Source: an uncultured archaeon (GTDB lineage: Archaea; Iainarchaeota; Iainarchaeia; Iainarchaeales; GCA-2688035). From it: 25,590 nucleotides of DNA. The stretch's first letter is position 1, and each line of letters starts with the position of its first letter. Where the stretch lies: the NCBI GenBank assembly GCA_964354805.1, contig CAYHBD010000022.1, forward strand, positions 1 through 25,590, given 5' to 3'. This document shows positions 4,362-22,231 of the stretch, piece by piece. Position numbers and translations under genes: made by a program. The notes under the pieces were generated by a model, which worked only from the letters and a program-made list of their open reading frames with translations, was not told the DNA's origin and made no database searches.

Positions 4362-5852
4362 ATGGGCGACTTGGCAGATGAAGGAAAAGAGCTTAATGCA
4401 ATAAAGCAGAGGACAGATGCCCTTGGAAAAGAGATTCTGCAGATGGAGAACCAGGGCGCTGCGCTGATTAAAAAGGAAATTGCTTTGGAGGACAGGCTGG
4501 TTGCTGTTTTGGGGCAAATGCTTGAACTGGAGAAGGGAAAAATAGCTGATGCAAAGAGAAGCGGGGCAGCAAAGGAAGCGGCTTTGATGGGCAGGATAGC
4601 TTATTTGCAGAACAAGCAGCGCGAATTCGAGAAAAGAAAAGAGATGGTGAAACATTTAAAGGAAAAAAGCCTTGCAATAAAAGAGGAAATGGGCAATGCC
4701 GAGAGAAAAATGCGGGAGGAAATCGCTGAGCTGTACAGGATAAAAGAAATAAAAAAGAAGCACGCTGTTGAAAAAGAAGCGCAAAAGGCAGCCAAAGCAG
4801 CCGCTGAAAAAGCGGCCCAAATGGCAGCCGAAGCGGCTGCTGAAAAAGCGGTTAAGAAGGCAAAGGCTGCTGCGAAATTGAAGAAAGCAGTGCCTGCAAA
4901 GAAGCCTGCTGTGAAAGCGAAAAAAGCAAAGCCAAAAGCAAAGGCTGTTAAAAAAGCGCCGAAGAAGAAGGCGGTTAAGCGCGCAAAGCCGAAAAGGCTG
5001 GCTGCAGTAAGGAAAGCTGTTGTTAAAAAGCCTGTTAAAATAAAAAAGCCAAAAGCGAGGGTGCCGAAATTAAAGCTGGCAAAAAAGCCTGCTTTCCTTG
5101 AGGAACTGCCGGAAGCCGAGGAAGAAGAGGAAATGGAAGAGGAGGAAGCTGAAGCTGCAGAGGAAGAGGCTGTTGAGGAAGAAGCGCCGGCAGAAGAAGC
5201 AGCTGAGGAAGAGGAAGCGCCTGCTGAGGAAGAAGCGGTCGAGGAAGAAGAGCAAGTTGCAGAAGAACAGCCTGCTGAGGAGGAAGCTGTTGAGGAAGAA
5301 GCTCAGCCTGAAGAGGCTGCAGCTGAAGAGGAGCAAGCCGAAGAAGAGCCAAGCGCTTTGCTTGAAAGGGTTTTGGAAAAAGCAAAAGAAAAAGTAACTG
5401 AAGAGGAACCTGCTGCAGAGGCTGGGGCAAAAGAGCCAGGGGATTATGATTTCACTGAATTCAACAGCGTTGATGTTTCAATTTCCCATCCTGATTGGCC
5501 AGAGAAAAGCGGTGCGCCGTCAAATGCTTTGCTTAGCAGGGCTACAGGCAATTTTTCTTTTGATTTGCTGCAAATACCTGCCCAGGGAAGAAGCGTTGAT
5601 GACGTTGTTTCACAGGCAACTATTAAAATTGAGTCAAACATTGGCAGCAGGGTTTTGGAGAAAAAGAAAACAGGTGACAAGGCTTTCATTGTTTACAGCG
5701 AATCGCGCAGCGGCAGGGAGTTCCTGAACAAAGCAATCTTTGTTCTGCACCTGGACAAGATTTATAAGCTGGTTTTCAGCGCGCCAACAGAACAATTTGA
5801 CAAAATAAACGACATATTCTGGAAAGCGGCGAAGTCAATCAGTTTCAAATAA
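4362..5852 (+). CDS. Coiled-coil + Lys/Ala/Pro-rich (histone H1-like) + Glu/Ala-rich + C-terminal PsbP/DcrB-like domain protein
   Basis: Composition blocks are obvious. The C-terminus (SISHPDW...KIYKLVFSAPTEQFDKINDIFWKAAKSISFK) has a PsbP-fold-like pattern. Confidence 0.8.
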   Translation: MGDLADEGKELNAIKQRTDALGKEILQMENQGAALIKKEIALEDRLVAVLGQMLELEKGKIADAKRSGAAKEAALMGRIAYLQNKQREFEKRKEMVKHLKEKSLAIKEEMGNAERKMREEIAELYRIKEIKKKHAVEKEAQKAAKAAAEKAAQMAAEAAAEKAVKKAKAAAKLKKAVPAKKPAVKAKKAKPKAKAVKKAPKKKAVKRAKPKRLAAVRKAVVKKPVKIKKPKARVPKLKLAKKPAFLEELPEAEEEEEMEEEEAEAAEEEAVEEEAPAEEAAEEEEAPAEEEAVEEEEQVAEEQPAEEEAVEEEAQPEEAAAEEEQAEEEPSALLERVLEKAKEKVTEEEPAAEAGAKEPGDYDFTEFNSVDVSISHPDWPEKSGAPSNALLSRATGNFSFDLLQIPAQGRSVDDVVSQATIKIESNIGSRVLEKKKTGDKAFIVYSESRSGREFLNKAIFVLHLDKIYKLVFSAPTEQFDKINDIFWKAAKSISFK

Positions 5853-11071: not shown

Positions 11072-14000
11072 TTACGCTTTTTCCATGTATTCCTGCCAGT
11101 GCTTTATTTCCAGGTCATCCAGTTTCTTTTTTGAGATGCTGTGGATGAGCAGCTTTGCCAGCTGCCTGTTTGTAATAAGCGGAATGTTGAAATCTATGGC
11201 GCTTCTCCTCAGCTTGTATTCCGCTTCCAGTGATGCCCTGTCAAATTCGTTTGGAATTGCTATAACCAAATCAAGCTGTTTTTCCCTGAAAAAGTCCATT
11301 ACGTTAGGTTTCCTCTTCTCCTGGATTTTGTGGATTATTCTGCTTTCAATGCCCTGCTTTTTGAGGAAAGCGTGCGTTGTGTCAGTTGCAAAAAGGTTTA
11401 ATCCGATTAGCTTAAGCGCCCTGAATTCGTCGAGCAGGTCAAACCTGTTTTCGTCGCCACTAACCGAAACAAGGACATTTTTTTTGGGCACAATAAACCC
11501 TGCAGCAATAATGCTCTTGAGGAATGCGTCCTCGAAATCCGTTCCAATGCAGGCAACCTCGCCTGTTGAGCTCATTTCAACTCCCAACAGCGGGTCAGCT
11601 CCCTTCAGTCTGCTGAAAGAAAATTGCGGCGCCTTGATGCCTACATGGTCAAGGTCCAGGGCTGATTTTTCAATCCTCTGCATTTTTTCGCCCATTATTG
11701 CCCTTGTCGCAAGCTCAATGAAATTGGTGCCTGATACCTTTGAAACAAATGGAAAGCTCCTTGAAGCCCGCAGGTTCATTTCAATGACTTTTATTTCATT
11801 CTGCTTTGCAAGGAACTGGATATTGAAGGGCCCTGTGATGCACAGCTGCCTGCATAATTTGCTGGCAATCCCCTTTATTCTCCTGACTGTTTCAATGTAT
11901 GTTTTCTGCGGCGGGAAAACCATTGTAGCATCCCCAGAATGGACGCCGGCATTCTCCACATGCTCATTTATTGCGTAAACCACAATCTCGCCAGATGCAG
12001 CAACAGCATCAATCTCGAGTTCCCTTGCGTTTGAAATGAACTTGCTTATCACAACAGGGTATTCTGGGCTGAGAGAAGTTGCCTTTTCAAGGTAATTGCT
12101 TAAATCTTTTGCATTGAATGCAACGCTCATTGCAGCGCCGCTCAGTACATAGCTCGGCCTAACAAGCACTGGGAAGCCTGCCTTTTCGGCAAAGAGCAGG
12201 GCATCCTTTTTGCTTGTCAGCTCTTTCCATTCAGGCTGGTCAATGCCAAGCCTGTCGCATAATTTGCTGAAACTGTGCCTGTTTTCTGCTTTGTCAATGC
12301 TTTCAGGCGATGTGCCGAGGATTTTCACGTTTGCTTTATACAGTTTCATTGCAAGGTTGTTTGGAATCTGACCGCCCATGCTTACCAGAACGCCCAAGGG
12401 CTGTTCTTTCTCGTAAATGTCAAGCACTCTTTCCAGAGAAAGCTCTTCAAAGTATAGCCTGTCGCAGACATCGTAATCTGTGCTGACTGTTTCAGGGTTG
12501 AAATTCACCATAAGCGTGCTGTAACCCATTTTTCTCAAGGTGTTGTTTGCTGTTACTCCGCACCAGTCGAATTCAACGCTGCTTCCAATGCTGTAGCTGC
12601 CGCTGCCAAGCAGCAGCACCTGTTTGTTTTCGCTGCTGTTTGATGCTTGGTTGTTTGCTTTGTTGTTGAATTCAACATCATCCTCAATTCCATTGTAAGT
12701 AACATACAGGTAATTTGTTTTTGCAGGGAACTCTGCCGCAAGAGTGTCGATCTGCTTTACAACAGGCATTATGCCAAGCTGCTTTCTTTTCTCCCTTACA
12801 AGCAATTCGTCTGTTTCGCCAGCAAGCATTGCAATCTGCTTGTCCGAAAAGCCCGCCTTTTTTGCTTCAGCCAGCAGCTGTTCAGGGATGCCTGCAATTG
12901 TGCATTTTTTCAATTCACGTTCAATTTCAACAACTTTTTTCAATTTGAACAAAAACCATTTGTCCACATGGCTCAATTTATACAACTTTTCAATCGGATA
13001 ATTTTTCCTTATTGCCTCAATCAATGCAAAAATCCTCCTGTCTGTAGGGTGCTGAACGCTGTGGACTATTTTTTTAATCAGCAGCTTGTTTCCAACCAGG
13101 CCATACATTCCAATGTTTAGCATCCTTATTGCCTTCTGCATTGCCTCCTCAAATGTCCTACCAATTGCCATTACCTCCCCAACGCTCTTCATTTCAGTGC
13201 CAATCAGGTAACTCACTTTATTGAATTTCTGCAGATCCCATCTCGGAATCTTCACCACACAGTAATCAAGCGCTGGCTCAAAGCATGCAGCTGTCTGCTT
13301 TGTTATCTTATTCTGCAGCTCTGTCAGGCTGTAGCCAAGCGCCAGCTTTGCTGCAATGAATGCAAGCGGGTAGCCTGTTGCCTTGCTTGCCAATGCGCTG
13401 CTTCTGCTCAGCCTTGCATTCACCTCAATAACCCTGTAATCGTCGCTTTTTGGGTCCAAAGCAAACTGTATATTGCACTCGCCGACAATTTTGAAGTGCC
13501 TTATTGCCCTGATTGAAATCTCCCTGAGCTTGTGGTACTCGTTGTTGTTCAGTGTCTGGCTTGGGGCAACAACAATGCTCTCCCCGGTGTGAATTCCCAA
13601 TGGGTCAAAGTTCTCCATGTTGCAGACGGTAATGCAGTTGTCAAAGCAGTCCCTCACCACTTCATATTCGACCTCTTTCCATCCTTCAAGGTATTCCTCA
13701 ACAAGGATCTGGGGCGCGAAAGTAAATGCCTGCTCTACAATGCCCCTCAGCTGCTTTTCGTTTTTTGCAACACCGCTTCCCCTGCCGCCCAAAGCATAGG
13801 CTGCCCTTACAATTATCGGATAGCCTACCTTCTTCGCTGCAAGCATGGCATCCTTTTTGTTTGTAACAGGAATGCTTCTCGGAACTTTCACAGCAATGCT
13901 TTCAAGCTGCTTATTGAACAGCTCCCTGTCCTCTGTGTCAATGATTGCCTGTATTGGCGTTCCCAAAATTTGCACCTTGTGTCGTTGCAGCGCGCCGCTC

Positions 14001-14333
14001 TTAAAAAGCTCTACCCCACAGTTCAATGCTGTCTGGCCTCCGAAGGAAAGCAGTATTCCATCAGGCTTTTCTTTTTCAATCACTTTTTCAACAAAGAAAG
14101 GGTTTACCGGCAAAAAATAAATTTTGTCTGCAAATCCCTTGCTTGTCTGAATTGTTGCAATATTCGGATTGACCAAAACAACCTCAATGCCCTCTTCTTT
14201 CAGTGCCTTGATGCATTGGGAACCGGAGTAATCGAATTGACGGTCTAAAAGGCTAACTGCCTTATAGACTTTCGCCTGCTTCTCCGATTTTCAACGCACC
14301 ACTGCCGAGAACAATAACCTTTTTTGGTTTCAC
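11072..14333 (-). CDS. carB: Carbamoyl-phosphate synthase large subunit; two exons (14333-14271 and 14236-11072), 1075 aa after removal of a 34-nt intron
   Basis: RBS AAGGAGGTGG, then GTG 14333 gives MKPKKVIVLGSGALKIGEAGE. After the insert the frame gives FDYSGSQCIKALKEEGIEVVLVNPNIAT..., two ATP-grasp halves and an MGS domain. The ORF-track start at 14176 is an artefact. Confidence 0.93.
14237..14270 (-). other. Putative bulge-helix-bulge (BHB) intron in carB mRNA, 34 nt
   Basis: AGTCTATAAGGCAGTTAGCCTTTTAGACCGTCAA. Central helix GGCG/CGUC, bulges AA|A and AA|U, 11-position internal stem. Removal restores the conserved GEFDYSG motif. Confidence 0.88.
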
Positions 14334-14349
14334 AAAGCTGCCACCTCCT

Positions 14350-15435
14350 TTATTCTCCTCCAATAATTTTTAAAAATTCATCAAACAAAAACGCTGTATC
14401 AACTGGTCCAGGCGCCGATTCAGGGTGAAATTGAACCGACATGAAAGGCTTGCTCTTATGCTTTATTCCTTCATTTGTGCCATCATTCAAATTCCTGAAC
14501 CAGGGCAGCCAATCGCCTGGCAGTGTTTTTTCATCAACAGCAAAGCCGTGGTTCTGGGAAGTGATATAACATTTTTTTGTTCCAACAATCTGGCATGGCT
14601 GGTTCTGGCTTCTGTGCCCGTATTTCAGCTTATAGGTATCTGCGCCTGCAGCCAATGCGAGAATCTGGTTTCCAAAGCAGATGCCAAAAGTCGGCAATCC
14701 ATATTCAAGCGATTTCTTCACTGTTTCAATTGTTGCCTGCATTGTTTTCGGGTTTCCGGGGCCGTTGCTCACCAGAATTGCATCAAAGTCATATTTTCCA
14801 TTGAACAAATTGTAATCCCATGGAACCCGAAGAACCGAGACATTCCTCTGCAGCAATGACCTTGCAATATTGTTTTTTGCCCCGCAGTCAATCAATGCAA
14901 TTGTTTGCTTACCGTTTTCATGCAAAACAGGCTCTTTGCAGCTTACTTCTGCGGCAAGGTTTCTTTTGTTCGGGTCAACAAAAGGCAATTCTTCATTGCC
15001 AAAAACAATTTTTCCAAGCATTACCCCTTTTTCCCGCAGCTTTTTTGTGAGCGCCCTGCAGTCAATCCCTGTTATTGCAGGAATGCCCTCTTTCTGCAGC
15101 CATTCGGCAAGGCTCTGCTCTGCCTGCCAGTGGCTGAATTGGCTTGAATAGTCTGCCACAATCAGGCCAGTGATTTGCGCTTTTTCAGATTCAAAGTTTT
15201 TGAGCAGGCCAAATTTGTCTTTTTCTTTGCCAGGAACCCCATAGTTTCCAATCAAGGGATATGTCAGAGCAAGGATTTGCCCATTGTAGCTCGGGTCGGT
15301 AAAGCTTTCCGGATAGCCGACCATACCTGTGTTGAATACAACCTCGCCTGCCGTGCTTTTTTCAAAACCGAAAGAAAAACCACTAAAAACAGTTCCGTCT
15401 TCCAGCACAAGAAAGGCATTCACCGGCTTGGGCAC
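14350..15435 (-). CDS. carA: Carbamoyl-phosphate synthase small subunit
   Basis: GEVVFNTGMVGY..TDPSY, SNGPGNP, GICFGNQ, TSQNHGF, QFHPE. RBS AAGGAGG and GTG start. Confidence 0.97.
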   Translation of the reverse strand: MPKPVNAFLVLEDGTVFSGFSFGFEKSTAGEVVFNTGMVGYPESFTDPSYNGQILALTYPLIGNYGVPGKEKDKFGLLKNFESEKAQITGLIVADYSSQFSHWQAEQSLAEWLQKEGIPAITGIDCRALTKKLREKGVMLGKIVFGNEELPFVDPNKRNLAAEVSCKEPVLHENGKQTIALIDCGAKNNIARSLLQRNVSVLRVPWDYNLFNGKYDFDAILVSNGPGNPKTMQATIETVKKSLEYGLPTFGICFGNQILALAAGADTYKLKYGHRSQNQPCQIVGTKKCYITSQNHGFAVDEKTLPGDWLPWFRNLNDGTNEGIKHKSKPFMSVQFHPESAPGPVDTAFLFDEFLKIIGGE

Positions 15436-21398: not shown

Positions 21399-22096
21399 TT
21401 AAATCGTCTCCTTCTTGCAAACCTGTTTTGTTTTTTGCAGGGTCTTCTGCCAGTTCTTGCAATATTTTTGCCCTTAGTTGTTGGAATCCTAACACCAAAT
21501 CCAAGAAGGTTTCTTCGCAGCTGCTGCAGGTTTTTGAATTGCACTGCATTTAATCCAAGTAATTTCCCCATTTTCACATAGCGCTGTAAATCATCAATGA
21601 AAATGCAATTACTTGGCTTTTCTTTTAGGTTGCGCAGCAGCGCTGAGAACAAATCCTTTTCATATTTCCTTTTATGAACCTCAAAGGAAGTGGCTGCTGC
21701 ATCAATGAAAGGCAGCAAATTATAGCGCTTCATTATGGCTGGATAGGTTACTGCATCACAATCTGAAATAACGCCAATCTTATAACCAGCTTTGCGCAAT
21801 TGCTTTACAAATTGTATAACAGAAGGTCTCCAAGTGAAAATCCTGTTGCCCCAAAATGTTTCAAATTCGCTGAAAGAGATTTTGTGGCGCATGAATGGCA
21901 GAATTCCACTATAAAACTGCTGTGGCGAAATTAACCCCCTCGCAAATTTATTGTACAGGGCAGGCACTGTTTTGTTGTTCCAATCAAGTTGCCCTGGTTT
22001 CGGAACAAATTTTCCTTTCACTAGAACATTTGGCCTGAATCCGACAAGTACACCGCCCAAATCGAAAATAACCGCTTTTATTTCAGCCCCTGCCAT
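21395..22096 (-). CDS. HAD-IA family phosphatase, tandem paralog with basic tail
   Basis: IFDLGGVL, FIDD. Shares GYKIG..S.CDA..YP..LLPFIDAAATSF.VH with the downstream HAD. Confidence 0.9.
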   Translation of the reverse strand: MAGAEIKAVIFDLGGVLVGFRPNVLVKGKFVPKPGQLDWNNKTVPALYNKFARGLISPQQFYSGILPFMRHKISFSEFETFWGNRIFTWRPSVIQFVKQLRKAGYKIGVISDCDAVTYPAIMKRYNLLPFIDAAATSFEVHKRKYEKDLFSALLRNLKEKPSNCIFIDDLQRYVKMGKLLGLNAVQFKNLQQLRRNLLGFGVRIPTTKGKNIARTGRRPCKKQNRFARRRRFK

Positions 22097-22102
22097 GATA
22101 AT

Positions 22103-22231
22103 TCACCTTTTTGCGCTTGCATGGCAGTGCGGGCATTTCACTTTGTAGCCGGAAATTTTGCTTCTCCACACATGGCCGCATATTCTGCATTGCCTTATTC
22201 TTTTGTACTGGTTTGAATTTTCTTTCGCCAT
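22103..22231 (-). CDS. 42-aa zinc-ribbon microprotein (not in ORF track)
   Basis: MAKENSNQYKRIRQCRICGHVWRSKISGYKVKCPHCHASAKR*. CxxC-x14-CPxC; fills the purB-HAD gap; its stop lies inside the GGTGA RBS of the next gene. Confidence 0.8.
   Translation of the reverse strand: MAKENSNQYKRIRQCRICGHVWRSKISGYKVKCPHCHASAKR

Follow-up and report, generated by a model that had tools for sequence, protein, structure and literature searches.

The cbf5 pre-mRNA of Crenarchaeota carries a bulge-helix-bulge (BHB)-type intron of 16-44 nt that is removed by EndA, with splicing seen in cDNA (Watanabe 2002; Yoshinari 2006; Yokobori 2009, PMC2738675). EndA is known to cleave each of the two bulges behind its second base, and RtcB to join the exons (PMC2738675, PMC5829648). 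As of 2009, introns in other archaeal protein genes were predicted, not confirmed (PMC2738675), and a 2020 study named cbf5 as the only other reported case besides the 5' UTR intron of Haloferax HVO_1309 (PMC7714728). The literature searched treats cbf5 as the only confirmed archaeal coding-sequence intron, of unclear origin (PMC2738675, PMC7714728). Sakai 2022 (PMC8784108) mentions only a 16S insertion. A search that covered few subscription journals returned no report of a carB intron, of coding-sequence introns in DPANN archaea or of intron-endonuclease pairing in archaea; the putative DPANN mRNA introns mentioned in a first-pass annotation of this DNA were not encountered there either.

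Two further systems combine an insert with a neighbouring endonuclease. Collaborative homing is exemplified in cyanophage S-PM2 by the free-standing F-CphI and the psbA gene next to it, which contains an intron (Zeng, Bonocora, Shub 2009, according to PMC6083498 and PMC2988022). In the T4 gene 60/MobA system, the gene next to an endonuclease carries a short, stop-bearing insert within a conserved codon, and the ribosomal bypass of such inserts requires matched take-off and landing codons, usually with a stop right after take-off (bioRxiv 10.1101/2022.08.31.505936).

Here a 34-nt insert in an archaeal carB gene is compared with these systems. Like the cbf5 intron, the carB inserts are short (17-42 nt), lie inside a conserved coding motif, are patchily distributed and are too short to encode a nuclease; unlike it, they interrupt a metabolic gene, occur in DPANN archaea and Nitrososphaeraceae, belong here to a host with a single-gene EndA and are linked to a free-standing endonuclease, and their splicing is predicted from sequence. 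EndA also acts on mRNA in Haloferax HVO_1309, where the BHB intron is in the untranslated 5' UTR, whereas the carB intron is inside the reading frame. With F-CphI and psbA, as far as the later accounts describe them, the carB locus shares an ORF-less intron, in relatives an adjacent free-standing endonuclease gene, and the expectation that the intron protects its own allele. It differs in lying on a cellular archaeal chromosome, not a phage one, and in that its BHB mini-intron would be spliced by the host, where group I introns splice themselves; F-CphI, moreover, is Endo VII-like while the carB endonucleases, whose cleavage is predicted, are LAGLIDADG proteins and a second, HNH_repeat-type family. 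By analogy, the mobility of the carB intron would resemble collaborative homing in phages. The likeness to gene 60/MobA lies in the endonuclease gene of relatives and the short stop-bearing insert in a conserved codon; removal of the carB insert is predicted at the RNA level.

By its sequence, the carB element can be defined as a BHB intron that would work like that of cbf5: it is real and conserved, is very probably spliced and is probably mobile. If the tRNA machinery also spliced the mRNA of a widespread central metabolic gene, as a second case besides cbf5, such splicing could no longer be regarded as a curiosity, and the endonuclease link offers a testable route by which nuclease-less introns could enter and spread through protein genes.

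The interrupted carB gene

The window (the whole 25,590-nt stretch of DNA that was analysed) belongs to a genome of 1.38 Mb (44% GC, 49 contigs, 88.5% complete) from the Iainarchaeota (Diapherotrites, DPANN). The carA-carB region contains the following features:

14350..15435 (-): carA, small subunit; TIGR01368; abuts carB; in relatives an endonuclease gene sits at this carA-carB junction
14271..14333 (-): carB exon 1; 21 codons from the GTG start to GEAGE, equal to residues 1-21 of intron-less relatives
14237..14270 (-): predicted 34-nt BHB intron; A, 11-bp stem (one U-U mismatch), 5-nt loop, CGUC and AA; in-frame TAA, +1 frameshift
11072..14236 (-): carB exon 2; 1054 codons from FDYSGSQ to the stop; TIGR01369, 1458 bits, profile positions 25-1050

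The positions given in the first-pass annotation were all borne out (GTG at 14333, 21 codons to GEAGE, insert at 14270-14237, TAA as the third insert codon). In the unspliced carB mRNA a stop is reached after 23 codons. Removal of the 34 nt yields one open frame of 1075 aa, the intact CarB that had been proposed, containing GEAGEFDYSGSQ. The conserved E-F pair was obtained only with deletion registers -2 to 0. A new EcoRI site does arise at the spliced junction, as had been predicted, but four others are already present in unspliced carB. One carB copy was found in this genome, and a search across it for a second copy of the intron found none. Partial CarB proteins from spliced RNA contigs were also sought; what turned up was a genomic intron-less allele. 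Among the contigs examined from four DNA runs, none joined the exons across the intron, a result that concerns DNA and not expression.

An assembly or sequencing artefact might be suspected in an assembly of this kind (49 contigs, 88.5% complete). It was refuted, and its probability is negligible: the insert is genomic, since 14136-14358 is covered without a gap, and with 6 differences, by a contig that comes from a separate DNA run, the identical intron is present in two other assemblies (L120, L272), and dozens of different inserts occupy the same site in relatives.

As had been anticipated, gene callers truncate or miss genes of this kind. The public protein collection holds this carB in a truncated 1034-aa form starting from TTG 14176, and in four NCBI records no carB is called behind the endonuclease gene. 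Such calls would agree with carB being a pseudogene, or with exon 2 alone being translated from TTG 14176 as a shortened protein while the hairpin is a passive insertion. The 1034-aa form, however, is without 41 residues that include the conserved GSG..IG.AGEFDYSG motif, and the exon 1 motif and ribosome-binding site (RBS) are kept. Exon 2, where relaxed selection would have pointed to a pseudogene, is instead under purifying selection (93 synonymous vs 15 amino-acid-changing codons against the relative L303) in the sole carB copy, and passive insertions would not covary as the related inserts do. A pseudogene or shortened protein is therefore very improbable. The only gene for carbamoyl-phosphate synthase in this genome is broken by a 34-nt hairpin, whose removal from the mRNA would almost certainly fall to the tRNA-splicing enzymes. 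With carB truncated or uncalled in public annotation, too few DPANN genomes may be credited with the synthesis of pyrimidines and arginine.

Fold of the insert region

The predicted BHB comprises four segments:

14282..14289 (-): outer exon-exon helix, 5' arm; pair probability 0.95-1.0
14270..14276 (-): central helix 5' strand (GGCG, exon) and 5' bulge AA/A; from the fold and related inserts
14236..14242 (-): central helix 3' strand (CGUC, intron) and 3' bulge AA/U; from the fold and related inserts
14221..14228 (-): outer exon-exon helix, 3' arm; from the fold, the ensemble and relatives

The minimum-energy fold of 14300-14210 was -36.9 kcal/mol (z -6.38), with 0/200 shuffles as low, and contains the BHB that had been described as canonical. 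Across the ensemble, pairing was firm in the intron stem and in the outer helix (mostly p 0.95-1.0), but the central helix reached ~0.45 and the A14277-U14235 closing pair 0.07, so that 'canonical' is true of the best structure only. A closing pair of this type is possible in only 19/35 related inserts; given this weakness, the motifs as a family are not strictly canonical but in part 'relaxed'. On the exon side, the BHB is flanked by one weak A-U pair, then an internal loop, then a 6-8-bp helix, and the intron-side helix is strong and covarying. The 4-bp central helix (ensemble ~0.45) lies between two 3-nt bulges at the exon-intron borders, which is the arrangement of an EndA-spliced intron. 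With both cuts placed behind the second bulge base, the functional sequence is regained, and the border is the same in all 37 alleles collected.

In the proposed reaction, the transcript would fold so that exon GGCG pairs with intron CGUC between the two bulges, held by the intron stem and the outer exon-exon helix. EndA would then cleave both bulges, in each case behind the second base, and the joining of GGC GAA to UUC GAU by RtcB would give full-length CarB.

Same-site inserts in relatives

A match was obtained in 64/215 genomes of the phylum, and 61 Iainarchaeota loci were examined. Comparison of carB among these relatives, which had been proposed as a check, placed an insert at exactly this boundary in 19/61 loci (8 families); the other 42 were intron-less. 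Inserts at the same boundary were also present in eight Nanobdellota genomes and in metagenome contigs that form a clade and encode, next to carB, proteins grouping with entries of Nitrososphaera and Nitrosocosmicus (Nitrososphaeraceae). The 'Methanosarcinales' label of one locus (L056) was not trusted, as its CarB groups with Woesearchaeota. Pair counts were made on the 37 alleles obtained by protein searches only, which hold 35 distinct inserts of 17-42 nt; metagenome loci found by DNA pattern were excluded because the pattern presupposes the central helix.

The inserts differ in sequence, but compensatory changes, some of them in exon-intron pairs, preserve the central helix and the stem. 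Central pairs c2-c4 can form in 35/35 inserts and c1 in 32/35, and at c3, an exon-intron pair, U-A replaces C-G by a double change in four inserts. The first four stem pairs can form in 35, 35, 34 and 34 of 35 inserts (shuffled means 25, 28, 14 and 16), and 0/2000 shuffles reach these values; the counts are inflated by relatedness, yet stem positions 3 and 4 hold four to seven pair types. The 6-bp core of the outer helix is complete in 17/19 intron-bearing vs 2/42 intron-less loci, and the fixation of synonymous sites across families is confined to codons -6 to +5 of intron-bearing alleles.

All 35 distinct inserts break the frame, and their lengths fall in all three frames (17/11/7). A stop codon is present in 17/17 in-frame inserts vs 6.6 expected, which suggests selection against read-through of unspliced mRNA. 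A hairpin, stops within the insert and a neighbouring endonuclease, as also found in the gene 60 cassette (bioRxiv 10.1101/2022.08.31.505936), would also be in line with the ribosome having skipped the insert (translational bypass of the T4 gene 60/MobA type) or having shifted frame, with no removal from the RNA. Against bypass, matched take-off and landing codons were found in 0/37 alleles and an immediate stop in 0/37; against frameshifting, no single frameshift works for lengths in all three frames. The covarying exon-intron pairs moreover form a 4-bp helix with a 3-nt bulge on either side, which is the geometry of EndA. Decoding of this kind has a very low probability.

Splicing machinery of the host

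As the first-pass annotation had asked, endA and rtcB were looked for, and one of each was found (endA at C11:9447-10043, with PF01974 at C11:9474-9734; rtcB, PF01139, C9:56487-57794). EndA is encoded by a single gene of ~170 aa, and a search of this genome for a second EndA subunit found none. Tyr, His and the recognition Arg are all present. The residue at His+31, the catalytic Lys in, for example, the M. kandleri enzyme (PMC5829648), is Thr in this EndA and is not Lys in any of 22 Iainarchaeales EndAs compared. Across the Iainarchaeales sequences (L031, L274-L301), His+31 is mostly Thr, with Lys or Arg one residue before. The missing Lys is a trait of the lineage. Activity of the host EndA would be implied only by the intron-bearing tRNA genes, of which this genome has many. 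Many of the host tRNA introns are long and made of related A/T-run hairpins; these show no match to the carB intron.

Taken with the exact restoration of the motif, the covarying same-site inserts in three phyla, purifying selection on exon 2, the single carB and the truncated calls, the presence of endA and rtcB upholds the original claim of a BHB intron, and splicing of carB mRNA by EndA and RtcB is very likely. Two carbamoyltransferases are encoded in the host genome, and a search of this 88.5% complete genome for arcC (carbamate kinase) did not find it.

A genome-wide BHB scan, blind to relaxed motifs and to stop-free in-frame inserts, yielded one further convincing case (kae1); its other matches were mainly chance matches at gene junctions. 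The kae1/tsaD insert, the top scan match, is a second BHB insert of 21 nt with an in-frame TAG (C9:102729-102749 (+) in this genome, G000; L304:2730-2750). Taking it out restores GIESTAHTFG. ORFs adjoining it gave no match to an endonuclease family.

The endonuclease gene at the carA-carB junction

In L120 and L272, which have the identical intron, a free-standing 405-aa ORF lies between carA and carB. It encodes a two-motif LAGLIDADG protein (Pfam LAGLIDADG_3) whose acidic motifs D137-G138 and D229-G231 are invariant in 27 homologues. The structural model had a pLDDT of 90, and the top Foldseek matches were LAGLIDADG enzymes of inteins and introns, among them PI-PfuI, PI-SceI and I-DmoI (E 3e-8 to 1e-3), with the non-cutting WhiA also matched. 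A PDB sequence search was uninformative. The first neighbouring ORFs considered as endonuclease candidates were TauE or without family and were rejected.

Among the 19 intron-bearing Iainarchaeota loci, the endonuclease gene is full in 5 and left as a 3' remnant in 3. It was not seen in the other 11/19 or in the Nitrososphaeraceae loci, many of which offered ~500 nt of upstream DNA, nor beside intron-less loci in the upstream DNA examined (again ~500 nt for many). As an independent test, a search by the endonuclease alone returned 29 proteins and retrieved nine new loci. The gene was directly upstream of carB in 9/9, with carA upstream in all eight that reach that far, and carB carried the intron in 9/9. 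Elsewhere in this genome no homologue of the carB endonuclease exceeded about 28% identity, so supply of the endonuclease in trans is not indicated.

A probable endonuclease relic and the shared tract

Two features link the window to this gene:

14330..14358 (-): carB ribosome-binding region, identical in sequence to the last 29 nt of the L120/L272 endonuclease gene; reads ..RIKEVAAL and stop in another frame
14177..14358 (-): putative co-conversion tract (RBS, exon 1, intron and first 60 nt of exon 2); 182 nt compared with L272

The 25 nt before the GTG and a stop overlapping the GTG are identical to the end of the endonuclease gene, and 14330..14358 is a probable relic of a homing-endonuclease gene lost from this locus. 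A GGAGAA hexamer occurs near the end of carA and in the L120 endonuclease tail, and could explain the deletion. The intron reading of the first-pass annotation stands, but it was made without the link to a homing endonuclease, whose 3' tail alone remains in the window.

Three alleles that share about 91% DNA identity form a trio, namely those of this genome (intron only), of L272 (intron and endonuclease) and of L303 (empty, with neither intron nor endonuclease); the window adds the endonuclease-lost state with a matched allele trio. Within the tract, this genome and L272 differ at 3 positions in 182 nt vs 78 in the next 870 nt (98% vs 91%; 9% background; binomial P 4e-5). At the 111 exonic tract positions, L303 differs from this genome at 20/111 and L272 at 3/111 (Fisher P 0.001, in this one trio only). 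Beyond +60, the three are equally distant, with 74-81 differences in 870 nt. The 182-nt tract shows a pattern of putative co-conversion, of which it does not itself give the direction; most near relatives are intron-less. Selection on the RNA helix would likewise account for the conserved flanks, which weakens the block-copying reading.

Proposed spread of the intron

We propose that the free-standing two-motif LAGLIDADG endonuclease would cut intron-less carB at or near this boundary, and that repair would copy a block of endonuclease gene, RBS, exon 1 and intron into the cut allele. The intron would interrupt the target and so make its own allele immune. This genome would then have lost the endonuclease gene, possibly via recombination at the GGAGAA microhomology, keeping its tail as the carB RBS, and the intron would persist because only exact deletion restores CarB. 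Comparison with close relatives suggests that the intron arrived together with the endonuclease gene since lost here.

A spliced intron could also be old and vertically inherited (or an RNA-level insertion) and repeatedly lost, with the endonuclease an independent passenger of the carA-carB junction. This is compatible with splicing. One shared site with similar ends across three phyla fits a single origin, and Nitrososphaeraceae loci have the intron with no endonuclease seen. Other free-standing LAGLIDADG genes of this genome, moreover, have neighbours without obvious intron. Mobility is favoured by a CarB tree (quick, with weak support) in which intron state was not more clustered than shuffled labels (16 changes vs 15.7) and the starred branches force at least 4 changes; related genomes are not independent, and the change counts cannot separate gain from loss. 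Vertical inheritance is also opposed by the endonuclease never being seen beside an intron-less allele and by the 9/9 endonuclease-first loci that carry the intron, by a 182-nt tract with a history separate from the rest of carB, and by most family members nearest this CarB being intron-less. We consider it unlikely.

Endonuclease-driven spread of the intron is probable on the present sequences, and the explanation as a whole, an archaeal BHB intron in carB mRNA that was mobile via the endonuclease and later lost it here, is held with good confidence. We lean, more tentatively, towards a general class in Archaea of mRNA mini-introns that are spliced by the host and owe their mobility to free-standing homing endonucleases, as collaborative homing in a cellular form. 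The start of carB would be a hotspot (up to three introns, two endonuclease families, three phyla), and this genome would represent a late stage in which the endonuclease is lost, the intron is stranded and carbamoyl-phosphate synthesis depends on tRNA splicing.

Additional observations

A second BHB-like insert site lies in carB exon 1 at the codon after GSGA, with inserts of 14-35 nt (L243, L245, L246, L247, L249, L250, L264, L265, L271). L264 has a third insert at NIAT/IQ, giving up to three introns in one carB. Upstream of intron-bearing carB, a second, unrelated family with HNH_repeat domains and a PD..E.K-like tail occurs at L243:891-2231, L245:845-2194 and L254:846-2141. In L190 (1138-1992) and L262, carA is separated from an intron-bearing carB by two ORFs of 168 and 113 aa that belong to no known family. 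In L251 (G216), carB exon 2 is lengthened in frame by ~170 residues near position 490, and the upstream endonuclease is internally truncated (287 aa).

Six more free-standing LAGLIDADG-type ORFs are present in this genome (C28:49833-48751, C30:47069-46143, C35:83002-84078, C16:128814-127819, C28:40911-39886, C28:21702-20290), and 3/6 share an N-terminal motif, SGTPLFQ/TGTPLFQ, that is similar to how the carB endonuclease begins. Further LAGLIDADG matches inside long proteins of this genome are probable inteins.

Elsewhere in the window, a 496-aa ORF at 4362-5852 (+) had no NCBIfam or Pfam match. The RBS and ATG (22096) of a HAD hydrolase gene are enclosed in a hairpin of nearly perfect BHB shape at 22084-22128 (-), through chance or translational control.
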